DNA from: Candidatus Lokiarchaeum ossiferum
Lineage (GTDB): Archaea > Asgardarchaeota > Lokiarchaeia > Sigyniarchaeales > Promethearchaeaceae
NCBI GenBank assembly: GCA_025839675.1
Contig: CP104013.1
Span: 2,550,001-2,582,000 of the forward strand
Direction of reading: 5' to 3'
DNA length: 32,000 nucleotides
Part shown: positions 4,431 through 31,342 of the stretch, in pieces
Numbering within the stretch: position 1 is the first letter of the stretch
Layout of the letters: every line of letters starts with the position of its first letter
Notes under the pieces: model-generated
What the model was told of the DNA's origin: nothing
Databases searched by the model: none
The model's input: only the letters and a program-made list of their open reading frames with translations
Translations under genes and position numbers: made by a program

Positions 4431-4539
4431 GCAATCTTTCGTAGTATGTATCTTTTTTTTTGTAGAACTGATCATAACAATTATATAACTCAAGTCCCAA
4501 TTTTGTATTGATATGAACTCTACAAAATCGTCACAAAAG
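4431..4539 (+). repeat. copy B of the ~108-nt direct repeat; functional promoter/5' end of the large beta-helix gene
   Basis: Contains the TATA-like TTATATAA (4481-4488), centred ~28 nt upstream of the ATG at 4513. That spacing suggests a leaderless or very short-leader mRNA. The repeat also covers the first ~9 codons (MNSTKSSQK). Confidence 0.8.
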
Positions 4540-7500
4540 ATGCTGTTTATAATGATTTGTTTTTTACTGGCTGGAAATGTGTGTAACTCTAATAATAATC
4601 TCAATCACACTAAAGGAAAAATACATGCAGCCCCAGAAACCTATGATTTTAATACAACCTCTAATTCTAATAGTTTAGAAATTCTAAATGAAACAGATCT
4701 TGCACTTATTGCTACCTCAGGAAATGGAACTTTTGAATCACCATATATTTTAGAAAACCTTATAATTAATGCAGAAATGAAGGAAAACGGGTTACGGATT
4801 GAAAATACTCGGTCAACTCTCAAAATTCAGAATTCTAGCTTTTATTTTTCTGAATTAAGTTCTTCTTTCGCTGGTATTTTTTTGAAAAATTGTTCAAATA
4901 TCATCTTTGAGAACATATTGTGCGTTGCAAATTACCACGGCATTTATATAGAAAATTCCACCAATATTTCCGGTTCTTTATTGCAAATCTGGAATAATGA
5001 ATATTCAGGATTTCGAATTAAGGATTCTTCCAACATAATTTTTCATTCAACTTCAATTTCTAAGGGGCAGTATGGACAATATATAACTGACTCACATAAT
5101 ATTACACTTTTTGATTCGGAAATTCACTTTTCATCTGCAGGAATAGACGTGAGTGATTCTACGACCCTGAACTTCAGCTATATTCTGTTTGATGAAACAG
5201 CTCGTCGAGGGATAGATATGGAATCGTGCTCGGATATTGAAATTTATTCAAATGATCTGGCTAATTGTGATAATAGCAAGTATGGATCAGGACTCGGAAT
5301 TTATACTTATCAAAATCAAAATATAACTTTGCGAAACAACACTTTGACTGATTGTTATTTGGGAACAAGTTTCAATAACGCTCCCTCACTATTGGATATG
5401 CAACACGATATTGATGATTCTAATCTCATCAACGGTCTTCCAATTGGCTATATCCACGATGGAGTAAATTTAGATTCAACTATATTCGAAAACAAATCCC
5501 AACTAATTGTCGTTAATGTGAATCACACCATTATTGAGGATCTAAATTATTCCAATATTCCATACCCTATCAGTTTTTATTACTGCAATAATTTAACCTT
5601 TGAAAGTTCTGTTATTACAAATGCCATTTATCCATTATATTTTTGTGAATCTACCAATTGCTCAGTTCAAAATAATGATATAACTGATTGTGACCAATAT
5701 ATGGGGTATTTTCTGGAATGTACAGACTTTCTTGTATCGAATAACAATTTTGAAAACACGAACAATGATGCAATTTACTTAAGAAATACAGAATACTTTA
5801 ATATTCATCAAAATACAATTACTTTTTCCACTGCTGCGATTAAATCCTACCATTCGCAACACACTATTATTCAGAATAATATTCTAACCAACAATATTTA
5901 TGGTTTTTCCAATAATTGGTTTGACAACTTGACCATTTATAACAACCAAATTAATAGTAGTTCCTATGATCTTAATTTCTACCAGACATCAGCTTCCAAT
6001 TTGAATATTTCAAAAAATGACATGCATGGGAAAGGAATCCTGTTTTCAGAACAATTAGGTAACTCAGTGTTTGCATCCTATACTATTGAAGGAAATCTGG
6101 TGCATGATAAACCGATTTATTGCTATTATTCAGAATCTGGATTAAACCCGAGCGATTTTCTCAATGCAGGTCAAATTTTTGTAGTGGATTGTAGTGATGT
6201 CCACATAGAAAATTTGGCCATGGCTGATGTGGCAGAGGGTATTTATCTTCTATATTCAACTGATAGTTTCATCTCAAATATAAGCTTAGATAATATTGCT
6301 CGATTTGGAATCATTGTCAGTAATGGGCAAAACGCGATTATTGATGGTGGCAACATCACCAACTCCGATACCGCAATCATTTGTCGTGGGGATAATATGA
6401 ACTCGGTGGAAAATTTTACTGTGGGTAATACTAACATCAGAAAGGCCGAAGAAGGAATTCGGTTTGATTATGTCAATATCTTGAATATCTCGAATAATTA
6501 TATCCAAGAGATTTTTGAAAGTGGGATTATTATTCGAAACTGGGGTTTTGGAGATATTGGTCATAATATTATTGAAGTTGAAGAAGGTACTGCCATTGAA
6601 CTAATTCGGTGTGAAGAAATGAATTTTACTGATAATGCCATGATTGGTTCGGGATTTGAATTTGAACAATTAGGTGGATCGAGTTTTGAGTATCATGACT
6701 CCCATTTAATCCCAATTACGAATACTGTAAATGGAAAACCAGTTTATTATTATTGCCATGAAACAGGATTAGTTCCGCAAGACTTTGCCAATGCCGGTCA
6801 GGTCATACTAATTGATTGTGCGGATTCAGAAATAGCAGATCTCGATCTATCATATAACTACTATGGGTTATTCGCATCATCTTGCGAAAACCTTGACTTA
6901 TGGAATATTTCTGTCTCAAATTGTAAAAAAATGGGATTATATTTCGCAGAATCACAATTCTGCACTCTTTCTCAAATAACTGCAACATATAATTATGGAG
7001 GAATTGAATTCAAAGGAGGTTCCAGCATAAAACATCCCAATAATACAATTTCAGATAGCATTATTAGCCATAATGAAGGGATTGGATGTTATATTTCCTA
7101 TTCTTATAATTTTACTATTCGCGATTCCTTGATAAATAATAACACAGATGGATTCTACCCTAGCAGTTCTCAGTACACCCACTTCATAAACAACACATTT
7201 ACAAGTAACAACTTTGCCATTAAGGATTATTATTCTCATAATTTGACGATTTCAAAATGTTTCTTTACCAATAACGTCGAAGGGGCACTAAAATATCAGT
7301 CCAAAGATCTTAAATTTTCAAATAATACCATGGTAAATGGGGGGATAGTTTTAAACCATTATGACTTTGAAGATATTGACACCTTTGAGATTTCCAACGA
7401 TAATTGGATTAATGGCAAAAAATTGTATTTCTACAAAAATATGGCCAGTTTGCAACCTGCAAATTTCTCAAATGCAGGTCAAATCATACTTTTTAATGTG

Positions 7501-8322
7501 GATAATGTGTCAATTAGTAGCGTGAATCTTTCAAATGCCTCGTGCGGAATCTATATCATCGAATCAAGTAATATCTCAATTGAGAGCGTAGAAAGCACAA
7601 ATAATATAATAATGGGCGGCTTTTTCCTAGATTCTCAAGAAATTCAGATTGATCAAAGTGATTTTTCATCAAATGGTGATGGGATGTTTTTTGATAATTG
7701 TTTGTCGATAACATTAAATAATCTCCAAATAAACCACAACCAAAATTATGGCCTTTATACCAACTATCTCATCAATTCTATAATCTCGAATTCCATTTTT
7801 GAAGGAAATGATCAAACAGGGATATATCTTAGATATTCCAGCAATAATTCATTTTCATCCAACTATATTGTTGATAATTTTGAAGCAGTAATGCTTAGTA
7901 ATACTGAATGCAATGAAAATCGATTCTGGAATAATTCCTTCATTGGAGATAACCTATTGGTCACAGATTATGGTCTTCTGAATAGGTACAATGTGAATTC
8001 GATTGGAAATTATTGGGGAAATTATGAAATTCGATACCCAAGTGCAACCAAACTAGCTTATTATTGGAGCACAAGTTACAGATTAGAGGGAACGTACTGT
8101 ATTTATGATAGATTCCCATTAATTGTAGATCCGTTCAATCCCTCCAATCCAGAAATTCCCGATGACCCTGATGATACCACAACTTCCGATACTTCCACCA
8201 CAGATCCTAGTAATTTTTCTCGTCCCTTAGCAGAAATATTAGTGTACTCCATTACAGGAGGAATCTTGGGCGTTGGATTAATCGGAGTTATAATCTATCG
8301 CATTAAATTACTAAAAAAATAA
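4513..8322 (+). CDS. large secreted, C-terminally membrane-anchored parallel beta-helix (PbH1 / NosD-like) surface protein with four tandem modules
   Basis: 1269 aa with an N-terminal signal/anchor (MLFIMICFLLAGNVC). Pervasive ~22-aa beta-helix coil repeats are present (xNxxIxxNxI, e.g. NNTLTDCYLG, NNDITDCDQY, HNEGIGCYIS). A module-start motif recurs four times: NGLPIGYIHD (nt ~5431), DKPIYCYYSESGLNPSDFLNAGQIFVVDC (~6106), NGKPVYYYCHETGLVPQDFANAGQVILIDC (~6730) and NGKKLYFYKNMASLQPANFSNAGQIILFNV (~7411). The protein ends with a Pro/Asp/Thr-rich stalk (PEIPDDPDDTTTSDTSTTDP), one TM (ITGGILGVGLIGVIIY) and a basic tail (RIKLLKK). N-x-S/T sequons are very numerous. Confidence 0.88.
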   Translation: MNSTKSSQKMLFIMICFLLAGNVCNSNNNLNHTKGKIHAAPETYDFNTTSNSNSLEILNETDLALIATSGNGTFESPYILENLIINAEMKENGLRIENTRSTLKIQNSSFYFSELSSSFAGIFLKNCSNIIFENILCVANYHGIYIENSTNISGSLLQIWNNEYSGFRIKDSSNIIFHSTSISKGQYGQYITDSHNITLFDSEIHFSSAGIDVSDSTTLNFSYILFDETARRGIDMESCSDIEIYSNDLANCDNSKYGSGLGIYTYQNQNITLRNNTLTDCYLGTSFNNAPSLLDMQHDIDDSNLINGLPIGYIHDGVNLDSTIFENKSQLIVVNVNHTIIEDLNYSNIPYPISFYYCNNLTFESSVITNAIYPLYFCESTNCSVQNNDITDCDQYMGYFLECTDFLVSNNNFENTNNDAIYLRNTEYFNIHQNTITFSTAAIKSYHSQHTIIQNNILTNNIYGFSNNWFDNLTIYNNQINSSSYDLNFYQTSASNLNISKNDMHGKGILFSEQLGNSVFASYTIEGNLVHDKPIYCYYSESGLNPSDFLNAGQIFVVDCSDVHIENLAMADVAEGIYLLYSTDSFISNISLDNIARFGIIVSNGQNAIIDGGNITNSDTAIICRGDNMNSVENFTVGNTNIRKAEEGIRFDYVNILNISNNYIQEIFESGIIIRNWGFGDIGHNIIEVEEGTAIELIRCEEMNFTDNAMIGSGFEFEQLGGSSFEYHDSHLIPITNTVNGKPVYYYCHETGLVPQDFANAGQVILIDCADSEIADLDLSYNYYGLFASSCENLDLWNISVSNCKKMGLYFAESQFCTLSQITATYNYGGIEFKGGSSIKHPNNTISDSIISHNEGIGCYISYSYNFTIRDSLINNNTDGFYPSSSQYTHFINNTFTSNNFAIKDYYSHNLTISKCFFTNNVEGALKYQSKDLKFSNNTMVNGGIVLNHYDFEDIDTFEISNDNWINGKKLYFYKNMASLQPANFSNAGQIILFNVDNVSISSVNLSNASCGIYIIESSNISIESVESTNNIIMGGFFLDSQEIQIDQSDFSSNGDGMFFDNCLSITLNNLQINHNQNYGLYTNYLINSIISNSIFEGNDQTGIYLRYSSNNSFSSNYIVDNFEAVMLSNTECNENRFWNNSFIGDNLLVTDYGLLNRYNVNSIGNYWGNYEIRYPSATKLAYYWSTSYRLEGTYCIYDRFPLIVDPFNPSNPEIPDDPDDTTTSDTSTTDPSNFSRPLAEILVYSITGGILGVGLIGVIIYRIKLLKK

Positions 8323-8440: not shown

Positions 8441-8466
8441 GTAATGACCTGTCAACTTCAACCAGA

Positions 8467-11859: not shown

Positions 11860-11904
11860 TTTTTTTCTTCCTTTATACTTTAAATTGTGAAATATGAATG
11901 TAAA

Positions 11905-12315: not shown

Positions 12316-12335
12316 AAAACCAAAAACCAAAAAAA
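12316..12335 (-). terminator. triple oligo-T tract (TTGGTTTTTTTGGTTTTTGGTTTT on the minus strand), candidate terminator after the methyltransferase gene
   Basis: Read directly, 38-57 nt downstream of the stop at 12373. It separates the cbf5-methyltransferase unit from rpoH. Confidence 0.45.
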
Positions 12336-12372
12336 CCAATTCAAGAAAGTAACGATTCAAGGGAGTAATAGA

Positions 12373-13095: not shown

Positions 13096-13098
13096 GGA

Positions 13099-14118: not shown

Positions 14119-14184
14119 ATTATCTATTTAACTACCATTCCCTTTCAAAATTACGATTTTTATTTAGAAAGAATTAAAAAACAA

Positions 14185-16587: not shown

Positions 16588-17727
16588 TTAAAAATTAAAG
16601 TCGGATCTTTTTAAATCTTTACCACATTCTTCACAATAGGCATCTTTATTGGAAAGAATGCGAGCAATTAATGTTTTCGCTAAGTAATCTCCACATTCTG
16701 GACAACGAAGATTTAGAGCAGAAGAGTGAATACTTGATTTTTCAACTTCAAATTTTGATTCACTCTTTCCTCGCGATTGAATTGAAGGTGTTTTTTGATA
16801 TAAATCAGTATTCAAATCCAATTTCGCGCTTTGTTTTTCTATTGGAAAAGCAGAGGCAGCAACCACCGGCTTTTTATCAGCTTCGATATATGCTTTGGGA
16901 TCTTTTACTTCAATATTAATTATTTCCATATGATTATTCTCAGTTAAAACCACTAAAGCATCAATATCGGGAGAAAATAAAGGTCCAGCAGATAAACTCT
17001 GAATTGGAGCTCGGCAGCGATATGTTTCAAAGGTATTTCCTTTTTTATCCAAAATGTGAATTGTGTTGGAATTATCACCAACAGCTAATAGTGTCTGATC
17101 ATATAAAGAAAGAGTAGTAAAGCCTGTGATCACCGGAATATCCACAGGAATTTTTTGCACGGATGCTTCAATGTCCAACACATTTACCGAATTATTTTGA
17201 TCAACAAATACAATCACCTTTTTCTGAGTTGAATTAATTTTCCCAATATCAACAAATAGGATATCTGTAGGATGTTGGTACTTTGCCATAACTTGTCCTT
17301 GGTTATTTAGAACAAAAATTCGGTGATCTTCTAAGAGAACTACTATTTCCAATCCGGGATCATAATCTAAATTTCCAACGATTCCATTAACAATACCAGA
17401 AGGAAGGGTTTTCTTCCAGATTTCGCCTCCATCTTTAGAAAAGACCCGAATTTCTCCAGAATATGAGAAAGAAACAAACACATTGTCACCTTTATCATAG
17501 ATATCCTTTAAAAATAAGGCAGAAACATCAGAAGAGAAAGGAAATTTAGAAAGGGATTTACCTTCGGAATTAAAGATGGATAATTTTTCATCATAACTCA
17601 AAAGTAATATTTCTGGTGTTGAATTTTGGGTAAAATGACCAAGGGAACAGAAATAGAATGCAGATTGGCTAAAGATTGATCCTTTTTTAACAAAATTCAA
17701 CGATTTACTAAATTTTTTCCAGCTCAT
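16588..17727 (-). CDS. cytoplasmic ~6-bladed beta-propeller (FG-GAP/PQQ/BBS2-like repeats) with C-terminal zinc ribbon
   Basis: 379 aa with no signal peptide or TM. About six ~43-aa repeats each end in a hydrophobic strand plus turn, for example GHFTQNSTPEILLLSYDEKLSIFNSEGKSL, KDIYDKGDNVFVSFSYSGEIRVFSKDGGEIW, GNLDYDPGLEIVVLLEDHRIFVLNNQGQVM and GPLFSPDIDALVVLTENNHMEIINI. A ~60-aa polar linker follows, then CPECG-x18-CEECG. Confidence 0.6.
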   Translation of the reverse strand: MSWKKFSKSLNFVKKGSIFSQSAFYFCSLGHFTQNSTPEILLLSYDEKLSIFNSEGKSLSKFPFSSDVSALFLKDIYDKGDNVFVSFSYSGEIRVFSKDGGEIWKKTLPSGIVNGIVGNLDYDPGLEIVVLLEDHRIFVLNNQGQVMAKYQHPTDILFVDIGKINSTQKKVIVFVDQNNSVNVLDIEASVQKIPVDIPVITGFTTLSLYDQTLLAVGDNSNTIHILDKKGNTFETYRCRAPIQSLSAGPLFSPDIDALVVLTENNHMEIINIEVKDPKAYIEADKKPVVAASAFPIEKQSAKLDLNTDLYQKTPSIQSRGKSESKFEVEKSSIHSSALNLRCPECGDYLAKTLIARILSNKDAYCEECGKDLKRSDFNF

Positions 17728-17767
17728 TGTTATTTTCTCAAGTTCTTATTTAATTATCATGTAATGC

Positions 17768-17776
17768 AAAAAAAAA
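17768..17776 (-). terminator. T9 tract (minus strand) 6 nt after the Cache-HAMP gene stop; possible (leaky) terminator
   Basis: Read directly. A TATA-like TTAAATAA follows, ~20-28 nt upstream of the propeller ATG (17727). The propeller gene may therefore have its own promoter. Confidence 0.35.
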
Positions 17777-17782
17777 GGGAAA

Positions 17783-19213
17783 TTATTTATTTTTGCTATC
17801 TTCTTTAATTGCCGATAGCATACCCTTAAATGCGCGGGTTAAATCACCAATTTCATCATCTTGGGCTTCAAGAGTTTCATCAATCACAATATCTTCCCCT
17901 GATGTTAGCATCGAAGATACAGAATCTTGACTGGTCAATTTTTGAATAGATTCGGTTAGGATTTTTACAGGTTTTGTAATTTGTCCCGCTATCATAGTCC
18001 CTAAAAAGACAGAAACTCCCGCTGCGATCAAAATAATAATAATTAGTGTGATCTGCACAGCTCGAATTGCTTTCGAGACTTCACCTTGCAATACTGCTAC
18101 AGAAGCTAACGCATCATCTTCAGAAACCACATTAACTAGGATAAAATCGGTACCAGCAATAGCACTATATGCATAGTAAAAGTCTTCATCAGCAGTTTTT
18201 TCATAGGTCCCCACACCAGAACTATAAGTTGTCATTTCTGTAATTGTGGAAGTTGAAAAAGGTTCAACATCAGCAATATTAACAGTAACGTCATCCCCAT
18301 CTTCAGGATCATCAACATCTGGGTGAACAACAGCTAACCCAGTATTATCGATCAGAAATGCATAACCTTTCCCATCCAGAAAACTTATATCCAAAATATT
18401 TTCTTTAATCGTATCAATTGTTAAATCCACGGCAATTATTCCAATTAATGAATCATCAGTCTCATTGAAGACACCTTGGGCAATAGTGATCATCAGCCCT
18501 AATCCATTGGCATCCATATATGGAGAAGTAATCAGTAAGTCGGAAGATTCTTCAAGACTTGATGTATCATACCACGATCTTGTTCGCGGGTCATAATCTT
18601 CATCAAATTCTGACCATGGATAACATCGGAAAATTCCGAGATCAAAACCCATATAAATCCAGCCTAAATCGGGATTTGCGGTTTTAGTATATCTAAATAT
18701 GTGATCCAAATTAGCAGAAATATTCACCATTTTTTGAACTGTTTCGTTGGCATCAGAATATGTCGAAGTATATGTGTTCGGAGCCAAATGATACATCGAA
18801 TAATTGAAGCTGACAAAACCATCACCATAATTACTATCCAATTTGAATTCAATATCAGGGTTACCCTGATGATCATCAAGAATATCCGTAAAGGACGGAT
18901 ATGGCCCATAATCATCCGGATTGTTGAATAGATTTGTGGCAAAGTAAGCCATTGATTTAACATCATTTATGGATGATTTTATCTTTTCACCAATCGTGTG
19001 GGCATTTTCTTGTGCACTTAAAATCATATTGGCTTGAATTTGATCTGTTAAAGCCTCTTCACTTTCGTTCGTTGTAGTTAATTTCATCGTTCCAAAGAAG
19101 CCTAAAATAATGGCACTTACACCAATTAAAGCGATTATTGAAAATACAGTAAATGCGAGCAAAATTTTAGTTCGGATTCCGTACTTAATAGATTTTTTAG
19201 TAGTTGTTGTCAT
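17783..19213 (-). CDS. membrane sensor: TM - double-Cache-like extracytoplasmic domain - TM - HAMP, with no output domain
   Basis: 476 aa. TM1 is ILLAFTVFSIIALIGVSAIILGFFG. Cache hallmarks are GWIYMGFDLGIFRCYPW...YDPRTRSWY...MDANGLGLMITIAQGV...IGIIAVDLTI...GYAFLIDNTGLAVVHP. TM2 is ITLIIIILIAAGVSVFLGTMIAG. The HAMP-like segment is ITKPVKILTESIQKL...DDEIGDLTRAFKGMLSAI, and the protein ends 8 aa later. Confidence 0.8.
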   Translation of the reverse strand: MTTTTKKSIKYGIRTKILLAFTVFSIIALIGVSAIILGFFGTMKLTTTNESEEALTDQIQANMILSAQENAHTIGEKIKSSINDVKSMAYFATNLFNNPDDYGPYPSFTDILDDHQGNPDIEFKLDSNYGDGFVSFNYSMYHLAPNTYTSTYSDANETVQKMVNISANLDHIFRYTKTANPDLGWIYMGFDLGIFRCYPWSEFDEDYDPRTRSWYDTSSLEESSDLLITSPYMDANGLGLMITIAQGVFNETDDSLIGIIAVDLTIDTIKENILDISFLDGKGYAFLIDNTGLAVVHPDVDDPEDGDDVTVNIADVEPFSTSTITEMTTYSSGVGTYEKTADEDFYYAYSAIAGTDFILVNVVSEDDALASVAVLQGEVSKAIRAVQITLIIIILIAAGVSVFLGTMIAGQITKPVKILTESIQKLTSQDSVSSMLTSGEDIVIDETLEAQDDEIGDLTRAFKGMLSAIKEDSKNK

Positions 19214-19225
19214 AATGGTTCACCT

Positions 19226-21958
19226 TTAATTAGATTCTATGAAATCCTCCACGTTTATTTGAGCCATCAAATTAGAAACTTCTTGGAAAGCATTTTGAAT
19301 CGCTTTTTTCGCATTCTGAGAATCATGCACAGGGATATATCTTCCTTGAACACTTCTTTCGCAGATTTTTCGCAAATCGCCTTCAATAGGGATTAACTCA
19401 TTACCGATTCCAATAATAAGAAGGTTCATGGAGATTAAGTTTTCCTCAATATATTCTCCAAGACCAACCCGTTTATCAGAATTCATAAATTTCCAAAAAC
19501 CTTTATATTGTCGATCTTGTAAATTGAATTGGTTGCTTTGGTTATCCATTCCATCAGTTAGAGCGATAACCCATTTATGTTCATCAGAAATTCTTTGATT
19601 TATAAGGTTGAAAGAATCACCAATTGCATCAAACATTGCCGTCTGATAGCGTGTAGCACGTATTCGAGAGATAATTCCCCGAATATGTTCTTCATTTCCT
19701 CCTTTTAGGGTTGGTGGTAAAATCACTTCTGAAATAGAGTGGAATAAGACAATTGCAATTTCATCTTGAGGATTAATTTGGGTATCATAAATTTCTAATG
19801 CCCCACTAACAGCAGCATGGATTCGATTTCCAACCATTGATCCTGATACATCAATAACCATTACAACAAATTTCTTCTGGATCAAACTCACACGTAATTT
19901 CTCATATTCCACACGCATTCGATGGGCTTGAGGACGTTTTCGAGTATTTTGATACACAGTTTCCATTTCTTTATATATATTCATTTGTAATCGAATATCT
20001 TGCGCTTTTTTAGCGCCAGTCAATGCTTCTTCGAGAATACTGATTGCTTCAGGATCATTCTCAATAGTAGCAATTTTCCCAAGATAAAATTGGTTGTAGG
20101 CAGTACCAAGATCATCTTGATTATTGAAATCTATATCAAGGGCAGAGCGAATTAAGGCTTTTCCATCCTCCACTTGACCATGTTGTGCTTTAAACAAGCC
20201 AAAATTTCTAAAGATTAAAGCGAGATCGGCTTTTAAATTATTGCTATTGCATACATTTACCGCTTTTTCAAAATAATCACGAGCGAGGTTTACATTTTCT
20301 GAATCAGCATATAATTGAGCGAGGTTATTATATCTTTTAGGTAGGACAGTGTTATCTTTCATCTCAAGAGCGATACTGATTGCAAGTTTGTAAGAAGTTT
20401 CCGCGTCAGCAACATTACTCCGAATCCGATAGATATTTCCAAGATTATTCGCGCAAACAGCCATACCTTTCTGATTGCCAGAAATTTTGAAAATTTCTAA
20501 TGCTTTATTATAGTTTTTAGCAGCTAAATCTAAGTTTCCTCGATAATAATCCGAATTTCCTAAACGAAGCATGGTGATTAAATTTTGGAAGGATGAGGTT
20601 AAAACTGCAATTTCATCATTCGCACTTTTTGATTCCATCGGGATTTCCCGAGAAATCGAGCCTTGCGATATAAAATTCATCATTTTTGTCAAATTGGTGA
20701 TTGGATTCACGATGCGTTTACTTACATAACTGCTGGTAAATCCAATGAGCACAACTGAACCGATAAGGACAACCAAGAGAATTACTAATTGTTGTCGTGT
20801 CAAAGCAAGGATTTTACCACGAATTGTCGAGGCAGGAGCCACAATCTCTTCAAGAGGAACAACAACAGCAAACTTATACTCAGTAGAAGGAATTGTTTGG
20901 TAAGTAATATACCAGCTATCCCCATCTTTTGTAAAAGTACCATTACCCATAGAATGTTGATTCATCTGAGTTAAAATCGAAGAAAAACCGGATCCTTCTA
21001 AGGAGGAATCATCAATAGGTTTATTAATTTCAGCTTCTGCTGAGGCAATAGTACTTAAATCCAAACCAGGATGTGAAACAGTAGCTCCTGAATCACTGAT
21101 TAAAAATGCATAACCAGAATCCAAGATTTCAGTTTGTAAAATAGAATCTTGCAATGATTGGATAGTTAAATCTACTGCGATTACACCAATTAATGTCCCA
21201 TTCGCATAATGTACGGGTTTAGCTATAGAAATCATTAATCCCAAACCATTCGCATCAATGTAAGGTTCAGTAACAATAGTCTTGTCTTCCAATTTTGCTT
21301 GTTTATACCACCCACGTTGTCTTGGATCATAACCTGTATTATCAGTATCCCATTCAGTGAATGGGAAACATCGGAACAACCCTTGTTCTTCAAAACCCAT
21401 GTAAATCCACCCATATTCGGGTGAAGTTGTTTTTAATTGTTTAAAGAAAACATCAAAATGCGCTGATAAATCGATTGTATTGTTCATAGATGCACTTTGA
21501 ATTGTGGGATCATTACCAACAATACTCGTCGGAGGAAAATAAATAAATGATGCATCAAAGGATAAAGTGATTCCACCATATTCTGATGGACTCTCATAAT
21601 CGAGACTAGTGGGAATTTCAGTATGATAGTAGGACGGAATTTTATTCACGGCAATTTTTCCATTGAAAATATCTTCGGCATATTGAGCGAAAGATTCAAC
21701 ATCACTAACTTTTTTTGTGAATTGATCGTCGATATACGTCCCCAACGTATTGGTAACTTCATCCATAGAACGATACTGTTCATTTTCCAACGCCCCACCG
21801 CTTATATTTGCAACATCATTCCCCAACCCATTCATATTACCAAGTGATACTGACACTATGACAATTATAGGAACAATTAGAAACAGAATAAACGCGAGCG
21901 TAATTTTATTTTTAATTCCGAGCAGACGTTGTTGCTTGGAACTATGATTTTCTGCCAT
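19226..21958 (-). CDS. membrane receptor: TM - double-Cache-like domain - TM - HAMP - TPR repeats - von Willebrand factor A (MIDAS) domain
   Basis: 910 aa. TM1 is ITLAFILFLIVPIIVIVSVSL. Cache hallmarks are GWIYMGFEEQGLFRCFPF...YDPRQRGWY...IDANGLGLMISIAKPV...IGVIAVDLTI...GYAFLISDSGATVSHP. TM2 is LVILLVVLIGSVVLIGF. The HAMP-like segment is VNPITNLTKMMNFISQGS...NDEIAVLTSSFQNLITML. It is followed by ~5-6 TPR-like units of ~40 aa (e.g. GMAVCANNLGNIYRIRSNVADAETSYKLAISIA). The C-terminal ~216 aa (nt ~19229-19876) form a vWA domain with MIDAS residues VIDVSGSM ... T ... LTDGMDN. Confidence 0.82.
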   Translation of the reverse strand: MAENHSSKQQRLLGIKNKITLAFILFLIVPIIVIVSVSLGNMNGLGNDVANISGGALENEQYRSMDEVTNTLGTYIDDQFTKKVSDVESFAQYAEDIFNGKIAVNKIPSYYHTEIPTSLDYESPSEYGGITLSFDASFIYFPPTSIVGNDPTIQSASMNNTIDLSAHFDVFFKQLKTTSPEYGWIYMGFEEQGLFRCFPFTEWDTDNTGYDPRQRGWYKQAKLEDKTIVTEPYIDANGLGLMISIAKPVHYANGTLIGVIAVDLTIQSLQDSILQTEILDSGYAFLISDSGATVSHPGLDLSTIASAEAEINKPIDDSSLEGSGFSSILTQMNQHSMGNGTFTKDGDSWYITYQTIPSTEYKFAVVVPLEEIVAPASTIRGKILALTRQQLVILLVVLIGSVVLIGFTSSYVSKRIVNPITNLTKMMNFISQGSISREIPMESKSANDEIAVLTSSFQNLITMLRLGNSDYYRGNLDLAAKNYNKALEIFKISGNQKGMAVCANNLGNIYRIRSNVADAETSYKLAISIALEMKDNTVLPKRYNNLAQLYADSENVNLARDYFEKAVNVCNSNNLKADLALIFRNFGLFKAQHGQVEDGKALIRSALDIDFNNQDDLGTAYNQFYLGKIATIENDPEAISILEEALTGAKKAQDIRLQMNIYKEMETVYQNTRKRPQAHRMRVEYEKLRVSLIQKKFVVMVIDVSGSMVGNRIHAAVSGALEIYDTQINPQDEIAIVLFHSISEVILPPTLKGGNEEHIRGIISRIRATRYQTAMFDAIGDSFNLINQRISDEHKWVIALTDGMDNQSNQFNLQDRQYKGFWKFMNSDKRVGLGEYIEENLISMNLLIIGIGNELIPIEGDLRKICERSVQGRYIPVHDSQNAKKAIQNAFQEVSNLMAQINVEDFIESN

Positions 21959-22079
21959 GGTTAATGAATGTAATAGATTTTTTCAAAAATAAATCTATTT
22001 CATACGGTTTCAATCTTCCCAAGTACTTCATATTTTCCATATGGTAGAGTTTTAAACCTTATGCAAATTCTAAAATAAT

Positions 22080-22904
22080 GTGGGAAAACCAAAACGAAAA
22101 CTAAAACGAGGATATCCTCTTGCATTACTTATTGGGTTTGAACCCATGCGCACTATCTATTGGAATATTTTTAGCGAACGCGCAGAACTTCGTAAGATAC
22201 AGAAGTTACCCCGCAAAAATGATAATATGGACAAAGCTCAACTATATCAATTTCATGAGAATCTTGTGGATGAATTACGACCCATTCTCAAAGATGGGAT
22301 GAAAAGTGTTATTTTGGTTACAGCTCCGAAAAAAAAATATTCTACCCTTTTTCTGGACCATGTGTCCCGTCATCACCAATGGATGATGAGTGATAAACAT
22401 CCCAATTCTGCATCCTTTAAATTACTCACGGGTAAAATTTCAGATCTCGAAGAAACGACTAATTTGATTCAATCTTCTGAATTTAAAGCAGCCTTGGGAA
22501 AAGTCACAGAAGAAGAAGCGGACCGAATCCTAGAAATTTTGGAAAAACGACTCAACGATGAAGATGACGGTTTTGTGCTTCATACATTGAAAGAGATCGA
22601 AGATCTTCTCTATGCAGGTGGGAAACGAAAAAAAAATTTTAAAAATTTACCTCTATTACCAGAATACGTAGTACTGACTAATGAATACTTGGAAAACCAT
22701 CCAAATAAGAACCGGTTACAACGGTTGTTACAGATAGCAAAAAATCGCAAAATTAAAACAAAAGTTGTCGATTTTGAGACATCTGCCGGTATTCGCATAG
22801 CTCAACTTGGAGGCATTGTATGTTTCTTGGAGATTACTTCAAAATATGAGAAACAGAAAGGTGAAGAATTTTTCGAAAAACAACACCAAAAAAAAAGGAA
22901 ATAA
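22080..22904 (+). CDS. Pelota/eRF1-like protein comprising only the central and C-terminal domains (no N-terminal domain)
   Basis: 274 aa, aligned by eye to the Pelota/Dom34 layout. LALLIGFEPMRTIYWNI resembles the first strand of the central domain. KSVILVTAPKKKYSTLFLDHV resembles the 'IVAGPGFxKxxF' block. EEEADRILEILEKRLNDEDDGFVLHTLKEIEDLL resembles the helical linker, and EYVVLTNEYL the 'ETLLVSDxLL' block. NRKIKTKVVDFETSAGIRIAQLGGIVCFL resembles the C-terminal 'G..V.IVS..HE.G..L..LGGIAAILR' block. It has no GGQ and a basic N-terminus (MGKPKRKLKRG). GTG start; a TATA-like TTTTAAA ~25 nt upstream suggests a leaderless transcript. Confidence 0.5.
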   Translation: MGKPKRKLKRGYPLALLIGFEPMRTIYWNIFSERAELRKIQKLPRKNDNMDKAQLYQFHENLVDELRPILKDGMKSVILVTAPKKKYSTLFLDHVSRHHQWMMSDKHPNSASFKLLTGKISDLEETTNLIQSSEFKAALGKVTEEEADRILEILEKRLNDEDDGFVLHTLKEIEDLLYAGGKRKKNFKNLPLLPEYVVLTNEYLENHPNKNRLQRLLQIAKNRKIKTKVVDFETSAGIRIAQLGGIVCFLEITSKYEKQKGEEFFEKQHQKKRK

Positions 22905-22911
22905 AATGGCA

Positions 22912-23406
22912 CTAGGATTTCTCAAAAGAATTACGAACATTTCTTTCCCAGTCAGCAAAGTTGGAATCTAATTGGGAAATTAAATCAAATGTATCAGATT
23001 TCTTGATAAAAACCGCGTTTTCAGCATCATATTCAACAGGAAAAGTTATCTCTTTTGCCGTATAAAATAAAATAGCTTTTAATACCCCATACACGTTCTC
23101 TTTTACGAATATTATCCTTTTATTCAGCTTCTCTTTCAAGGGCCTCTCATCAATCAGATCCCACAGAGGTACATAGGAATCGACCGGTTTCTGTGTAAGA
23201 CGATAAAAAATTCGTTTCATTTCATCCAAAACACTCATTTTCGAACTCCAAAAAAAGTGCATTTCAATAGAACTGATTCTAAATTTGATTAGATCCTCCT
23301 TATTTCTTTTCCTAAACAGCATTCCTTGATAAGCATCCGAAACAATATACCTATCAACAATTTTCCAAATTGTATTCACAAAATCATGATTAAATGCCTT
23401 TTCCAT
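22912..23406 (-). CDS. hypothetical protein
   Basis: 164-aa ORF with an ATG start. It is convergent with the Pelota-like gene across a 7-nt gap and downstream of the DJ-1 gene on the same strand. No motif I can recognise. Confidence 0.5.
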   Translation of the reverse strand: MEKAFNHDFVNTIWKIVDRYIVSDAYQGMLFRKRNKEDLIKFRISSIEMHFFWSSKMSVLDEMKRIFYRLTQKPVDSYVPLWDLIDERPLKEKLNKRIIFVKENVYGVLKAILFYTAKEITFPVEYDAENAVFIKKSDTFDLISQLDSNFADWERNVRNSFEKS

Positions 23407-24135: not shown

Positions 24136-26364
24136 TCACGCCAAGGTATAATATCCAATATTGAGAGAATAGGCTGTTGTTTTTGCGTTTCGAGAGACCA
24201 TACGGACTGCAATGTAGTAAGTTCCAGCGGAAGGAATATTAACCGAACAACTTTCTGGATTAGTACCTGCATTGCCAATTGCAATAGAATCGGTATAATC
24301 GGCGGAATTACAAATATATACATCAAGATTATAATTATTACTCCAAGATAGAATTGCTTCCATCATTCCAGGTTGAGCAGTGATAGCAAAGTAATCCACT
24401 TCGAATTTTGCAATACTACCGGTCAAAGTTTCTTCAACATAAACGACATCACCAGATACTTCGTTATCAACAGTAACAGAAATGCTATCTTCACCATAAT
24501 TTCCTGCGGCATCGTAAGCCCGAACGCTGATAATATGATTTCCATTGACTACTGTTGTTGAATCCCAAACCCATGTATAAGGAGCAGACGAATCGGAAAT
24601 CCAACTTCCACCATCAATTGAATATTGAACATAACTCACACCAATATTATCTGAGGCACTTGCTTCAATGGAAATAAAATCACTAACAATTGCAGCATCT
24701 GCAGGAGACGTAATACTCACTTCAGGATCTACCGTATCAGAAGGTGTACTGCCTTGTTCAATTGAGAATGAATAATCAACTAAACCAACATCAGCACTCG
24801 CTATCATTAAAACATATCCATCATCGACAAATCCACCTAAAGCGAATGGATTAATTGTAGTTTCGGTAGAATCATCTAAAATCAAGGTTTCTACAGCAGT
24901 ATAAGTGGGAACCCCACCAACAAGTTCTACCGAAATTAAGGATACTAAGAAATCAGTTTCAGTAGTTCTCCTTCCTCCTGCAGGAGCACCATCGTCTCCG
25001 TTAAATGAAAACATAGGATTATATTCAGAAGAAATTTGATTAAACCGGACATAATCGGATCCATAGGATCCCAATTCATATACGCCTGTTGCATCTCCTA
25101 AATAACTGAGAGTTTCTCCAAAGCTTGAGCCTAAAACATTCGTTACGAACATATCATCTATATCATAAATTCGTGTCTGGGTTGGTTCCAATTCATCTAA
25201 ATCGAAAGTTGTATAGTCATATTTTCCTCCACCAATTTCTGTTGTATGGATTAAATTGGCAATTCGCCAGTCATGATAAACATCTTCGAAAGTTTCTGTG
25301 TAACCAAAGTAACTTAAGGCTTGATTAATTCCAGTCACACCAGCAACTCCTGCTTGGACAAAATGACTTATAAGTTCAGCCCCACCATAGTGATCCGATA
25401 AATAGACGGTCCACATTAACGCTGAACCATAATCTGCTAAAATATTGATTCCACCTTGATCTTCCCAAACTGTTAAAGAATTGTCAGGAGTCGCAAGATA
25501 AGCTTCGATATCACCCCATGCCACACCATACCCACATAATGGTTCAGCATACATTGAGCATCCTTCATTCATGAAGGTATCATCATTGGAATTGTAATCA
25601 TCATGAATCAGATGTTGATATTCATGCGCTACAACACCTTCATATAAGTTTGGGCGTAAAACATCATCCCCGATTCGATTTTCCCAATCCATACAATCAA
25701 TTGAGATAATATTACGATCAAAGGCTTGTTCAAAAACACCCCAATAAAAACCAACGATATAATAAGGATAACTTGCATCATAATACATATCATCACGAAT
25801 ATTGGAAACTAACATAACTGATCTTCCTGATTCTTCATAATATGCATCACCTTGTTGAGCTGAACTTCCATCATGGAAATCTGGGCTACCAAAATATGTT
25901 GTATCTATTGGATAAATGTTATTATCAAATTCATCAATCATGTAAGCGACTTGTTCATCGGTAATTACCGGTACTTCACGATCATCAGGGAAACTTAAAT
26001 CTAAAGCAACCCAAATTTCAATATTGTTTCCAACCCCTCGAAGTTCGAAGGGGAGAGTTATGGTTCCATCATTCATATCATAACCATACCAATCCACAAT
26101 ATCACCGTCAGCGTAATAGCTTAAAGCTTCCACACTAGAAACAGTAGTATCTTCAGAAGAAGAAATCTGTCGATCTGGAGTAGAAACAGCAGGTAAATTC
26201 TCCATTGTCCTTCCACGTATTTCAGGACCTAAATCAATAGGTTCATAAGCAGCATAATTATATTGTTTTTTTTGGTTTTGCTGCATTGCTGCACCTAATG
26301 TAAGGATATTTGAACATACGATGACAAAAACTAATGAGAAAATCATAGATTTATTGTATTTCAT
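24136..26364 (-). CDS. secreted zinc metalloprotease (gluzincin, HEXXH...E) with C-terminal Ig-like and pre-peptidase C-terminal (PPC)-like domains
   Basis: 742 aa with a signal peptide (MIFSLVFVIVCSNILTLGAAM). The catalytic motif is VVAHEYQHLIHDDYNSNDDTFMNEGCSMYAE: HExxH plus a downstream NEG glutamate. An Ig-like segment follows (DPEVSITSPADAAIVSDFISIEASASDNIGVSYVQYSIDGGSW...ISVRAYDAAGNYGEDSISVTV). The final ~95 aa are PPC-like (DYFAITAQPG...LDVYICN...AGTYYIAVRMVS...AYSLNIGY). The MEROPS family is unresolved (M30/M6-like at best). Confidence 0.8.
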   Translation of the reverse strand: MKYNKSMIFSLVFVIVCSNILTLGAAMQQNQKKQYNYAAYEPIDLGPEIRGRTMENLPAVSTPDRQISSSEDTTVSSVEALSYYADGDIVDWYGYDMNDGTITLPFELRGVGNNIEIWVALDLSFPDDREVPVITDEQVAYMIDEFDNNIYPIDTTYFGSPDFHDGSSAQQGDAYYEESGRSVMLVSNIRDDMYYDASYPYYIVGFYWGVFEQAFDRNIISIDCMDWENRIGDDVLRPNLYEGVVAHEYQHLIHDDYNSNDDTFMNEGCSMYAEPLCGYGVAWGDIEAYLATPDNSLTVWEDQGGINILADYGSALMWTVYLSDHYGGAELISHFVQAGVAGVTGINQALSYFGYTETFEDVYHDWRIANLIHTTEIGGGKYDYTTFDLDELEPTQTRIYDIDDMFVTNVLGSSFGETLSYLGDATGVYELGSYGSDYVRFNQISSEYNPMFSFNGDDGAPAGGRRTTETDFLVSLISVELVGGVPTYTAVETLILDDSTETTINPFALGGFVDDGYVLMIASADVGLVDYSFSIEQGSTPSDTVDPEVSITSPADAAIVSDFISIEASASDNIGVSYVQYSIDGGSWISDSSAPYTWVWDSTTVVNGNHIISVRAYDAAGNYGEDSISVTVDNEVSGDVVYVEETLTGSIAKFEVDYFAITAQPGMMEAILSWSNNYNLDVYICNSADYTDSIAIGNAGTNPESCSVNIPSAGTYYIAVRMVSRNAKTTAYSLNIGYYTLA

Positions 26365-26888: not shown

Positions 26889-27998
26889 TTAGTTGATTTT
26901 TCTTTTGACGAGCAGAAAAACAGATACTGCAACACAATATAGAATCATTATTGGTATGTTAAATCCGGGAATTCCAGTACTGACTTCCGCATTATAGCTC
27001 AAATTCAAAGTAGGGACTTCTACAAGAGGGAAGTTATCATCGTTTCTTGACCCAGAGATGTGATACTTTATATCCCACATTCCATTTTCTGAATTGGCGG
27101 ATGGATACCGGGTAGAATAATCCCCCCAAAAATTTCCGTGAGTGCCATTATCCCAATCGTTTATTCCCGACCCATCATCATATCCTTGATTACCTACATT
27201 TTTACTAAATATGTTGTAATAGATTTTGTTAAAACTTGAAGTTTCTTTTACTTGAATTCCATGTCCGTTGTACATAACTTTATTCTGAGTTATAGTGGTG
27301 TTTTTGGTATCATAGACCTCCAAACCATTGCTCGTACTGTTAATTATATAGTTATTGGAAAATTTATGCTCTAATCCTTCAAATAATACCGTTCCTTTAA
27401 AGTTAAATTCGATATGGTTTCCTTGGAATGTATCCCCGACAGAAAAATGAGAATATAAGCCCATTTGTTCACTTCCACAGATATAATTTCCTGAATATAT
27501 CCCATTTTTGCTAACATAAGGATAAAGCCCAATTCGAGAATTATTAATAAAATCGCAATTTAAGACTTGATTAAACTCACCATAAGCAGAATAGATTCCT
27601 TTATAATTCTCAATAAAAGTGCAATTACGAATGATCACATTGTCACACCGCATTAAAGTAATTCCCGCATCTTGTGCTAAATAACCGGAGTTTGTAATCG
27701 TGCAATTTTCGATTAAAACATATTTTTCAGAATTTTCTATTCTGATTCCAGAACCAGATTCATCAGCATCGATAATCAGATTCTGTAGTTTATACGGATT
27801 GGATTTAGCCCCGCTACCAGTGACATAGGGACAATCTTTCCAAGACATATCATCTTGAGTGGGATCGATAAAAATGGTATCATGAAGGCCTACAATGGGG
27901 TCTGCAGATACATCAACCATACCAAAATTAATGGTAGAGCCGATTATTATGCTTAAAAATAGGCTTGAAAGAAAAATTATTTTCTGATTTGTTTTCAT
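26889..27998 (-). CDS. secreted single-module parallel beta-helix (PbH1/NosD-like) protein with a PGF-like C-terminal anchor; paralog of the 4513-8322 product
   Basis: 369 aa with a signal peptide (IIFLSSLFLSIIIGSTINFG). The N-cap SNPYKLQNLIIDADESGSGIRIENS matches ESPYILENLIINAEMKENGLRIENT of the large protein. Beta-helix coils are present (NCTITNS, NCTFIEN, NCDFINN). The C-cap GNFWGDYSTRYPSAN...DNFPLVEVP matches GNYWGNYEIRYPSAT...DRFPLIVDP. The C-terminus is GIPGFNIPIMILYCVAVSVFLLVKRKIN. Confidence 0.82.
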   Translation of the reverse strand: MKTNQKIIFLSSLFLSIIIGSTINFGMVDVSADPIVGLHDTIFIDPTQDDMSWKDCPYVTGSGAKSNPYKLQNLIIDADESGSGIRIENSEKYVLIENCTITNSGYLAQDAGITLMRCDNVIIRNCTFIENYKGIYSAYGEFNQVLNCDFINNSRIGLYPYVSKNGIYSGNYICGSEQMGLYSHFSVGDTFQGNHIEFNFKGTVLFEGLEHKFSNNYIINSTSNGLEVYDTKNTTITQNKVMYNGHGIQVKETSSFNKIYYNIFSKNVGNQGYDDGSGINDWDNGTHGNFWGDYSTRYPSANSENGMWDIKYHISGSRNDDNFPLVEVPTLNLSYNAEVSTGIPGFNIPIMILYCVAVSVFLLVKRKIN

Positions 27999-30178: not shown

Positions 30179-31342
30179 TTATAGTTTAGGCATTTTATTT
30201 TGAGTTTTTGTTTTTTTTCTGAGGAAGAGAATTATGGAAAGAAGGGAGATCCCTAAAAAGATGAAACCAAACGATATTGTTCCATTTTCATCACTTTCAG
30301 AACTAAAATCAGTAGAAAGAGGTTCCCATTTAGAGTCTGTAGAATCATAGGACCATAAATCCCCATAGTTCACACTATAGTCTTCTCCAAGCCCTCCAAA
30401 TAGGTAAGTTTTATTGGTTGACGAAGCAAAAGCCATGGCATGTCCGGTTCGGGGGGATGGAGTGCTATCGGGAGAGAATTCAGTCCAAGTTGAAGAGGAA
30501 GATCCATTGAAACACCATGTATCCCCCAAAGCTCGAATAGGGGATTCTTCATTATCACCTCCAAACAGGAGGCTTTGACCCAAATGAGAATCAAATACCA
30601 TAGAAAACCAATATCGGCTTAAAGGAGTTGTATTAGGAGACTTTTTTTGCCAAGTACCTTCTGTAAGATTCAAACTCCATGTTTCACTAGACAGACCAGA
30701 GACACGCCCTCCAAAAAGTATTCCTAATTTAGCATTGGTATCGTATACCATAGCATGGCCATAACGAGCTTGGGGTGGAGTATTTGTGGTTAATTGCACC
30801 CAATTTTCAGTCTGTGGATTAAAAATCCATGTTGCATCCTTAAGAACAAAATTGGGATCAACGTGACCTCCATAAATAACAATTTTTTGTTCGTTTTCAT
30901 CATAATGCATAGAGAAATCAGCCAAATTTGGTGGAGAATTTTCGGGTGATAATTTTGTCCAAGCGTTAGAAGAAGGATCAAAAGCCCATGTTTCACCTCC
31001 ACCAAAATAAATGACCCGATTTGTGGATGGATCGTAGACCATTCCAGAATTTTCTTGAATTCTTGGAACGATTGGAGTATTTATAGGAGTCCAAGTATTA
31101 TTGGATAGATGATAAAGCCACGTAGAATAATCTGGAGAACTACTTGCCATAGTTCGACTTCCGAAAAGAATTAGTTGATTTTGAATAGGATCGAAGACCA
31201 TGGAATGGGCATACAGAAGAGAAGGTCCATCATTAGAAGATGAGGAATAACCAAGCGAAGGAAAACTTATCAAACCGAAAATGAAAATAAAAAAAGCAAA
31301 TTTAAGTTTGAAGTCGCGGTGAACTTTTAATTTTGACGACAT
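30179..31342 (-). CDS. secreted Kelch-repeat beta-propeller protein with C-terminal TM anchor
   Basis: 387 aa with a signal peptide (FAFFIFIFGLISFPSLGYS). Six Kelch-type repeats each carry a W-x-x-L/I...P-x-x-R-x-G-H-x-M-V-Y-D...L-x-L-F-G-G pattern (e.g. PPQARYGHAMVYDTNAKLGILFGGR, PSPRTGHAMAFASSTNKTYLFGGLG). The C-terminal TM is FGFIFLGISLLSIILFL, followed by a basic tail RKKTKTQNK. Confidence 0.85.
   Translation of the reverse strand: MSSKLKVHRDFKLKFAFFIFIFGLISFPSLGYSSSSNDGPSLLYAHSMVFDPIQNQLILFGSRTMASSSPDYSTWLYHLSNNTWTPINTPIVPRIQENSGMVYDPSTNRVIYFGGGETWAFDPSSNAWTKLSPENSPPNLADFSMHYDENEQKIVIYGGHVDPNFVLKDATWIFNPQTENWVQLTTNTPPQARYGHAMVYDTNAKLGILFGGRVSGLSSETWSLNLTEGTWQKKSPNTTPLSRYWFSMVFDSHLGQSLLFGGDNEESPIRALGDTWCFNGSSSSTWTEFSPDSTPSPRTGHAMAFASSTNKTYLFGGLGEDYSVNYGDLWSYDSTDSKWEPLSTDFSSESDENGTISFGFIFLGISLLSIILFLRKKTKTQNKMPKL

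Follow-up and report, generated by a model that had tools for sequence, protein, structure and literature searches.

The amino-acid class of dCache_1 sensors, dCache_1AA, is defined by six residues of the chemoreceptor PctA (Y121, R126, W128 together with Y129, Y144 and D173), corresponding to the motif YxxxxRxWY, followed 13-17 residues on by a further tyrosine and then by an aspartate (PMC8915833). PctA, PctB and PctC from Pseudomonas aeruginosa, Mlp24 and Mlp37 from Vibrio cholerae, and CtaA carry these residues in an input half that runs from a cytoplasmic N-terminus through a first transmembrane segment (TM1), the dCache_1 domain and a second transmembrane segment (TM2) to a HAMP domain; they are homodimers that signal to CheA and CheW through the signalling domain of the methyl-accepting chemotaxis proteins (MCPs). 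The same input half is encoded by NEF87_002145, a gene in a window of 32,000 nucleotides from Candidatus Lokiarchaeum ossiferum (assembly GCA_025839675.1, contig CP104013.1, positions 2,550,001 to 2,582,000 of the forward strand). Its product, here termed the long subunit, differs from these chemoreceptors in that the membrane-proximal part leads into tetratricopeptide repeats (TPRs) and a vWA domain with a metal-ion-dependent adhesion site (MIDAS), and in that it has an obligate-looking truncated partner, the short subunit, encoded by the next gene, NEF87_002144. A third linked gene, NEF87_002143, encodes a beta-propeller/zinc-ribbon protein. Our preferred reading, which we hold with about even confidence, is a heteromeric transmembrane amino-acid receptor in which the long protein bears the output and which controls MIDAS-dependent docking.

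Chance can be excluded as an explanation for the long open reading frame (ORF) because full-length homologues, 19 of which were aligned, reach E = 0. All three proteins match those of strain B-35 exactly, the long one being UYP45860.1, and the existing annotations of the three genes are generic ('hypothetical protein', 'tetratricopeptide repeat protein', 'cache domain-containing protein' and 'VWA N-terminal domain-containing protein'). Pfam matches, judged against the gathering cutoff (GA) of each model, place dCache_1 (PF02743) at residues 193-365 (E 1.5e-18, 67.7 bits against a GA of 45), TPR_12 at 462-531 (E 1.1e-17) with more TPR matches at 541-570, and VWA_2 at 698-803 (E 3.8e-12, 47.2 bits against a GA of 27). 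An AlphaFold2 (AF2) model built from the 19-sequence alignment, with a mean predicted local distance difference test score (pLDDT) of 78.4, shows a bimodular Cache region and a long TM2 helix. A Kyte-Doolittle scan gives exactly two transmembrane segments, at residues 19-37 and 391-409. Since four lysines or arginines lie within the 15 residues before TM1 and none in those after it, and since SKR directly follows TM2, the N-terminus is placed inside the cell, the Cache domain outside and the C-terminal half inside. An earlier inspection of the letters of the window and its ORFs, made without database searches (the sequence-only reading), had proposed both the Cache-HAMP-TPR-vWA order on a single ORF and this topology; the ORF list, Pfam and the AF2 model bear out the order, and the hydropathy and charge distribution support the topology.

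Apart from its occurrence in giant viruses, the family is confined to Asgard archaea. When one genome for each GTDB species was scanned, 78 full-length long-subunit loci were recovered, labelled as Promethearchaeum/Promethearchaeota, Heimdall-/Hodarchaeota, Thorarchaeota (the majority), Hermodarchaeota, Sigynarchaeum or 'uncultured archaeon', so that Loki-, Thor-, Heimdall/Hod-, Hermod- and Sigynarchaeia are all represented; the bacterial matches were TPR-only fragments alone. An exhaustive profile search gave about 89 full-length-like sequences, mostly representatives of clusters at 50% identity, and together with the genome scan it exposed an earlier family size of about 20 members, taken from a word-indexed protein search, as a sensitivity artefact. 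To our knowledge, nutrient and partner sensing in Asgard archaea is essentially uncharted, and the module is among the few receptor systems conserved across these five lineages.

The short subunit is colinear with residues 6-465 of the long subunit (30% identity, E 1e-59). It has the same two-segment topology, with transmembrane segments at 17-35 and 390-408, and Pfam matches dCache_1 (45.0 bits, borderline against the GA of 45), VWA_N and, slightly under its cutoff, HAMP in it, without any output domain. In hidden Markov model searches of all ORFs at the recovered loci, its gene lies immediately 3' of the long gene on the same strand in 77 of the 77 Asgard loci with room for it, and the spacer between the two has a median of 13 nt across 72 loci, with gaps of 9-19 nt; spacers of this length suggest translational coupling. 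In seven sequences of 1520-1650 aa from the profile search, which fall into about five clusters, the two are naturally fused, a TM-Cache-TM-HAMP unit preceding a complete long subunit. The five fusions examined (P0170, P0179, P0188, P0203 and P0211; the first from locus L087:478-5319, assembly GCA_013565615.1) each have four strong transmembrane segments, a pair of Cache domains that both bear the motif, and a single MIDAS vWA. With four segments, both sensors would lie outside and both HAMP domains inside, and the fusions provide a Rosetta-stone-type argument for a physical complex of short and long chains. HAMP bundles take two protomers, and with one of each kind the complex would have only one TPR-vWA arm. 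We infer that the two subunits probably form a hetero-oligomer, and the fusions in particular support the suggestion of obligate heterodimeric sensing.

Alternatively, the two proteins might be independent homodimeric receptors, the short one serving as a decoy or ligand sink or signalling through transmembrane/HAMP contacts with another protein, with adjacency reflecting tandem duplication and co-regulation. They are, after all, paralogues at 30% identity, and in a neighbour-joining tree of the sensor region an all-short grouping, and likewise an all-long one, appears in only 17 of 200 bootstraps; as no grouping tested exceeds 65%, the tree does not settle the orthology of viral and Asgard short subunits, and truncated copies might have arisen more than once. 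Nevertheless, two unrelated functions would have to be reconciled with the 77/77 adjacency and 9-19-nt gaps in lineages whose members are only about 30% identical, with the same pairing in all five distinct giant-virus loci and with the seven fusions, and a decoy needs no HAMP domain so conserved as that of the short subunit. We therefore regard independent homodimers as unlikely.

The sensor domains give a clue to the input. In the long subunit the N-terminal half of the dCache_1AA motif reads Y210-DPRQ-R215-G-W217-Y218 and in the short subunit YDPRTRSWY, both matching the class pattern. The C-terminal half is likewise present in the long subunit, where 14 residues separate Y218 from Y233 and D263 aligns with the aspartate of Mlp24 and PctC, and a HMMER alignment shows identity to the amino-acid-bound Mlp24 domain at six of the six positions. 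The full motif is retained in 15 of 19 family members (17 if a Y-to-F exchange at 210 is tolerated) and in four of four short paralogues, and GYDPRCRxWY persists in a divergent clade described below. The solved sequences nearest to the long sensor are PctC (8.8e-21), Mlp24, Mlp37, CACHD1 (E 6.9e-17) and PctA, a set that Foldseek also returns from the PDB; overall, the nearest solved relatives are amino-acid- and GABA-binding dCache domains (PctA/B/C, Mlp24/37, CtaA) plus CACHD1 and alpha2delta. By these sequence criteria the input half of the long subunit is a dCache_1AA member, and amino acids or close derivatives are, with moderate confidence, the predicted ligands of the sensors. As the organism is in culture, the prediction lends itself to a direct test on the sensors of NEF87_002145 and NEF87_002144. 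Amino acids and peptides sustain both of the Loki-type strains in culture. A gene for an M29 aminopeptidase (15427-16533, + strand) lies convergent with the propeller gene in the window, which is suggestive beside an amino-acid sensor; this neighbour is not conserved in the orthologous loci.

A narrower input has some genomic backing. When the flanks of the Asgard loci were clustered all against all, a single further family recurred, a pyridoxal-phosphate-dependent ornithine/arginine decarboxylase (PF02784) of about 610-640 aa, SpeA-like by its length, which directly follows the short gene in 45 Thor-type loci (e.g., L019:10316-12157, + strand) and sits upstream of the long gene, in divergent orientation, in five Heimdall/Hod loci (L011:3926-5854, - strand; L012, L013, L015 and L010). 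The linkage may mean that basic amino acids or polyamine metabolism are the input or the target of the module. The ligand could then be a basic amino acid derivative, an amine or a polyamine, with polyamine or arginine metabolism under the control of the receptor, and there is a precedent in amine-sensing dCache domains, which are reported to have evolved from the amino-acid sensor (PMC10104139). Retention of the carboxyl-binding half of the motif (Y210, R215, W217 and Y218) argues the other way, as does the absence of the decarboxylase from the Loki window and from the other Loki, Hermod and Sigyn loci. We regard this alternative as unlikely, to about the same degree as independent homodimers.

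The HAMP domain (PF00672) scores 19.4 bits in the long subunit (residues 412-465) and 24.7 in the short, against a GA of 25, and fits the HAMP family by its position right after TM2, its invariant P419 and the DEIxxL motif of its second helix (AS2). Segment 414-462 has low confidence in the AF2 model, as expected when a dimeric bundle is predicted from a monomer. One unbroken helix (447-472) joins AS2 to the TPR region, so that the continuity between HAMP and the first TPR helix, which the sequence-only reading had put forward for checking, is seen in the model; eleven further helices follow at 476-691 (five pairs and a cap, about 5.5 TPR units where five to six had been estimated from the letters, with pLDDT mostly 85-95), and then a six-stranded vWA fold at 696-899. 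Mean column conservation is highest in the protein at the HAMP-TPR junction (residues 458-476, 81%, with the motif LR[LF]GNxxYYxG), followed by HAMP (70%) and vWA (67%), and lower in the sensor (60%) and the TPR region (57%). A peak at the junction, with HAMP and vWA above the sensor, points to selection on a signal path from HAMP through TPR to vWA.

The vWA domain has the fold and the DxSxS...T...D signature of a MIDAS domain, and a metal site is predicted. D703, S705 and S707 (in VIDVSGSM), T773 and D802 (in LTDGMDN) are invariant in 19 of 19 close family members and the equivalent positions in 37 of 37 members of the divergent clade, 56 of 56 sequences overall; the MIDAS had been called intact from the letters of the window, and its conservation in orthologues agrees. 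No kinase, phosphatase, cyclase or MCP domain was found in the long subunit with Pfam or NCBIfam, and MCPsignal (PF00015), absent from it in Pfam, occurs in non-family matches of the search (P0021-P0033). The vWA has no close solved relative (the best, ITIH4 and CLCA1, are at E ~0.02), and the TPR-vWA half, used as a query, retrieved only family members with both parts and no other protein class combining the two. Taken together, docking of a cytosolic partner through the MIDAS seems a reasonably probable output.

The identity of that partner is where the next alternative enters. Intracellular prokaryotic vWA proteins often partner AAA+ ATPases of the MoxR type, and the TPR-vWA arm might accordingly be a dock for a MoxR-type ATPase or chaperone-like machine, as in vWA-MoxR pairs, BatA/B and the magnesium chelatase subunit ChlD, instead of for the propeller protein. 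Besides this frequent pairing, one member is named 'Mg-chelatase subunit ChlD' by JGI, a weak NCBIfam cobaltochelatase match exists (E 9e-7, far below the cutoff), and an AAA/AAA_5 gene lies 400 nt downstream in one giant-virus locus. Yet neither a MoxR/AAA+ nor a DUF58 gene recurs in the flank clustering across the Asgard lineages, and the window holds no MoxR-like gene, which makes such a dock very improbable. An extracellular vWA, in an adhesin or alpha2delta-like surface protein with Cache and vWA both outside, would find a parallel in alpha2delta and CACHD1, to which the sensor is related and which join dCache_1 and a MIDAS vWA outside the cell, but it is effectively refuted by the two transmembrane segments and the positive charges at the N-terminus and after TM2, by a HAMP domain right after TM2 with the vWA C-terminal to TM2-HAMP-TPR and not inserted in the Cache domain, and by the four segments of the fusions, which are consistent with HAMP domains and vWA inside.

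In Asgard archaea a candidate partner is encoded next door. The propeller protein consists, in its AF2 model (pLDDT 79.3, predicted TM-score 0.73), of a beta-propeller (residues 10-274), a disordered linker (284-337) and a C-terminal zinc ribbon whose two CxxC pairs (C342/C345 and C365/C368) are nearly invariant; no transmembrane segment was found in it or in its orthologues. Its best Foldseek matches are a KICSTOR subunit, the propellers of BBS1, BBS2 and BBS9, and Raptor (E ~1e-11 to 1e-9, TM-score ~0.5). No FG-GAP, Itfg2 or BBS2_Mid match exceeds the Pfam threshold; orthologues give sub-threshold matches to BBS2_Mid (25.7 against a GA of 27), Itfg2 (16.6), FG-GAP_3 (17.7) and PHTB1_N, and D-x-D-G-D-D...EVVV blade motifs are clear in the Thor orthologues. 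All Loki, Hod, Heimdall, Thor and Hermod orthologues inspected carry the zinc ribbon, which the Sigyn type lacks. Thor proteins (L019:4432-5937, + strand) continue for about 170 residues beyond it, and this extension contains a pair of internal repeats that to the eye resemble winged helices, without a detectable solved relative; Hermod-type proteins (L037:9550-11430, + strand) carry an insert of about 300 residues ahead of the zinc ribbon, and Heimdall proteins (L011:10303-11616, - strand) have four CxxC pairs. An acidic linear motif in the linker, AKLDLNTDLY, occurs only in close Loki relatives and was dropped as a candidate.

The propeller gene is linked to the pair in 70 of 80 Asgard loci, and in nine of the ten loci without it the contig breaks off on the side concerned. 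Of the Asgard loci flanked by about 6 kb on either side, one alone, on a 67.9-kb contig of an 'uncultured archaeon' (L013), has no propeller gene by the long/short pair. Gene order varies between lineages: the propeller gene comes first in 50 loci (propeller, long, short) and last in 15 (long, short, propeller), and in five it is convergent with the long and short genes. The three-gene set also recurs amid wholly different flanks in a metagenome-assembled genome (MAG) of Promethearchaeota, a MAG of Hodarchaeota and a third contig. Linkage that survives rearrangement and unrelated flanks is a classical signature of functional coupling, and the propeller/zinc-ribbon protein is a tentative choice for the docking partner in Asgard archaea, somewhat short of an even chance. 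The single-polypeptide receptor that the sequence-only reading had described holds in so far as the domains lie on one chain; since the long protein is invariably paired with a truncated Cache-HAMP paralogue and linked to the propeller protein, it is not a stand-alone receptor.

These elements can be assembled into a working mechanism. The long and short subunits would pair, each contributing one chain to a four-helix HAMP bundle from which a single TPR-vWA arm would extend. Amino acids or close derivatives would bind the membrane-distal pockets outside the cell; the resulting rearrangement of HAMP would travel along the rigid AS2-TPR helix and alter the exposure or geometry of the MIDAS face, and a cytosolic partner would be bound or released by the MIDAS metal through one of its acidic residues. 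For Asgard archaea, the best candidate for this partner would be the co-conserved FG-GAP-like propeller/zinc-ribbon protein, recruited to or released from the membrane. Receptor-controlled sequestration is familiar from Mlc and PtsG, which offers an analogy for such recruitment or release. With a partner recruited or released under the control of the receptor, the output would be protein docking and not catalysis.

Several observations weigh against the receptor reading as just set out. The HAMP domain of the long subunit falls below the Pfam threshold and is poorly modelled, R215 is lost in two family members, and the groupings in the paralogue tree have low bootstrap support. The decarboxylase linkage may hint at basic amino acids or amines rather than at amino acids generally. 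As to the propeller, its gene is on the opposite strand in the Heimdall/Hod loci, and the 55-nt spacer that separates it from the short gene in the window holds a possible terminator and a possible separate promoter. Nor is the propeller a universal partner, since no propeller gene lies within the flanks of the five distinct giant-virus loci.

Outside the Asgard archaea, a divergent clade makes up about half of the 89 or so sequences; its members are 23-28% identical to the Asgard proteins and richer in cysteine. One of them (P0128, CAH6420882.1) is annotated as 'VWA Cache recognition domain protein [uncultured virus]' and lies on a 650-kb contig beside a D5-type primase and RING proteins. Another (P0205) is found on contigs of 299 kb, where the locus was read, up to 802 kb, with TopoIB, an RNA ligase, RecQ, a cathepsin and a FYVE-PI3K protein. 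Three giant-virus MAG (GVMAG) loci of IMG/VR carry the gene in an alignment-based scan, while a scan of viral contigs with the single protein P0128 as query gave no match; P0146 is a 'viral metagenome' protein of UniRef, and the best fold match in BFVD is a Cache protein of Mimivirus LCMiAC02. In each of the five distinct viral loci a short gene of 504-579 aa lies directly upstream of the long gene, the pairs being arranged head-to-head or in tandem. Two members have other associations: P0110 is a full-length member in the transcriptome of Trimastix marina (EukProt EP00771), and P0020 (L086:6145-9276) lies on a 9.7-kb contig of 52% GC beside a Mec-17-type tubulin acetyltransferase and actin. 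Each of these two may be a eukaryotic gene, a giant-virus gene or contamination. That giant viruses of eukaryotes have the same gene pair makes for a puzzling distribution, with implications for how genes moved between Asgard archaea, early eukaryotes and their viruses.

Table 1. Coordinates of the module and of other features discussed in the text. Positions are those of the window, except for the giant-virus loci, which are numbered within their own sequences.
Feature	Position	Strand	Remarks
Upstream intergenic region	21959..22079	-	121 nt; A/T-rich ATTTATTTTT element ~35-45 nt before the long ATG
Long subunit gene, NEF87_002145	19226..21958	-	910 aa; ATG start; order TM1-dCache_1-TM2-HAMP-TPR-vWA
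TM1, aa 19-37	21848..21904	-	Hydropathy 3.13 (Kyte-Doolittle); K/R-rich cytoplasmic N-terminus before the segment
Extracellular dCache_1 sensor, aa ~40-385	20804..21841	-	Pfam PF02743; nearest solved sequences; Foldseek
Amino-acid-binding motif Y210, R215, W217, Y218, Y233, D263	21170..21331	-	Long subunit
TM2, aa 391-409	20732..20788	-	Hydropathy 2.8; SKR directly after
HAMP, aa 412-465	20564..20725	-	Pfam; invariant P419; DEIxxLTxSFQNL in AS2
Cytoplasmic TPR solenoid, aa 466-691	19886..20563	-	Five helix pairs and capping helix; Pfam and AF2
Cytoplasmic vWA, aa 696-899	19262..19873	-	VWA_2; six-stranded alpha/beta fold in model
MIDAS D703-x-S705-x-S707	19838..19852	-	
MIDAS T773	19640..19642	-	
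MIDAS D802	19553..19555	-	
Long-stop to short-start spacer	19214..19225	-	12 nt, AGGTGAACCATT; contains Shine-Dalgarno-like AGGTGA
Short subunit gene, NEF87_002144	17783..19213	-	476 aa; TM1-dCache_1-TM2-HAMP; ends 6 residues after AS2
Short-propeller spacer	17728..17782	-	55 nt; T9 run, then A/T-rich TATA-like box
Propeller gene, NEF87_002143	16588..17727	-	379 aa; cytosolic
NosD/beta-helix protein	4513..8322	+	1269 aa
Big_7/PPC protein	24136..26364	-	742 aa
NosD protein	26889..27998	-	369 aa
Kelch-repeat protein	30179..31342	-	387 aa
Giant-virus locus L088/L089	8313-12637		
Giant-virus locus L090/L091	8264-12697		
Giant-virus locus L092	937-5221		
Giant-virus locus L093	3068-7868		
Giant-virus locus L094	4359-8762		
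Short+long fusions			P0170, P0179, P0188, P0203, P0211, P0232, P0233; TM-Cache-TM-HAMP unit before a complete long subunit

The region upstream of the long gene that contains ATTTATTTTT is a putative promoter. The remainder of the window fits an Asgard genome, with an unsplit RpoB, Cbf5, a Roadblock-Ras GTPase, a Kelch protein and NosD-like beta-helix proteins. The large repeat proteins of NosD and Big_7/PPC type in Table 1 are probably at the surface or secreted. The GTPase, an Asgard-typical fusion of Roadblock/LC7 and a Ras-family small GTPase (14185-15183, - strand, 332 aa), lies two genes from the module, a linkage that is not conserved in other loci. The two ORFs adjoining the module (22080-22904, + strand, 274 aa; 22912-23406, - strand, 164 aa) have no match in Pfam, NCBIfam or among solved structures. 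GC content is 0.38-0.45 over positions 8000-15000 against 0.31-0.35 elsewhere, coinciding with rpoB (1130 aa), a methyltransferase gene and the gene for Cbf5.

How, then, does the module stand among described systems? The sequence-only reading did not recognise the arrangement as a described receptor class, and none of the sources consulted contradicts this: the architecture falls under no family of Pfam, NCBIfam or PADLOC, none of the three proteins has an NCBIfam model of its own, and the literature searched contains no description of the family, no mention of HAMP, VWA, TPR and Cache together and none of a giant virus with a Cache domain. The architecture is common within Asgard archaea, as the 78 loci attest, and no characterisation of it was found. 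Membership of a known anti-phage defence system is not indicated either, as only a generic TPR model of PADLOC matches the long subunit and nothing matches the short subunit or the propeller protein. The nearest non-family matches to the HAMP and TPR regions are Cache-HAMP-PP2C proteins of the SiaA type, TPR-PP2C proteins of the RsbU type and TPR-histidine kinases, which likewise place Cache-HAMP or TPR before the output. Their outputs are enzymatic, and none combines Cache, HAMP, TPR and vWA, whereas the output of the long subunit is a non-catalytic MIDAS vWA. BatA and BatB resemble it in having a membrane-anchored vWA, with TPRs in BatB, but, as the sequence-only reading had argued, they differ in domain order and in lacking Cache and HAMP. 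Their order is the reverse, an N-terminal transmembrane segment and vWA with any TPRs C-terminal; of their defining operon partners, MoxR and DUF58, neither is encoded in the window or recurs in the Asgard loci clustered, and the long subunit does not belong with them. On its domain content, the module would be a Cache-HAMP transmembrane receptor whose output is new and non-enzymatic and whose truncated partner looks obligate, and docking of a protein through the MIDAS, if it occurs as proposed, adds a non-enzymatic mode to the known outputs of Cache-HAMP receptors.

The eukaryotic parallels are of a different kind. Like the long subunit, alpha2delta and CACHD1 have a motif-bearing dCache_1 domain and a MIDAS vWA in one protein. 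The vWA of alpha2delta is an insertion within its Cache domain, and the two lie outside the cell (PMC8915833). The vWA of the long subunit instead follows TM2-HAMP-TPR and is cytoplasmic, and its sequence is not specifically alpha2delta-like, which sets the protein apart from that family. Residues 110-200 of the short subunit pass the VWA_N model of Pfam (38.5 bits against a GA of 34.7), a model derived from the first dCache of the eukaryotic alpha2delta and CACHD1 proteins, of which it covers the N-terminal half, and the annotation is missing from the bacterial MCP matches of the same search; this is a hint that the dCache domains of Asgard archaea and eukaryotes are specifically related. The integrin head, in which an FG-GAP propeller meets a MIDAS betaI domain, is echoed by the genetic coupling of a MIDAS vWA with a non-WD propeller whose blades follow a D-x-D-x-D...hydrophobic pattern. 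The likeness is one of analogy, in that the Asgard parts, unlike those of integrin, are cytoplasmic, no FG-GAP or integrin family of Pfam reaches threshold, and the coupling is a genetic one. One may nonetheless imagine, as an improbable reading for now, an ancient heterodimeric Asgard nutrient receptor whose integrin-head-like output of MIDAS vWA and FG-GAP propeller was a prokaryotic forerunner of eukaryote-style regulated membrane docking. If that were so, the viral and possibly protist (Trimastix marina) pairs would mean passage through the early eukaryotic lineage or its virosphere, and the module would be a signature system shared by Asgard archaea and eukaryotes that has gone unnoticed, and perhaps another origin for the dCache/vWA combination seen in alpha2delta.

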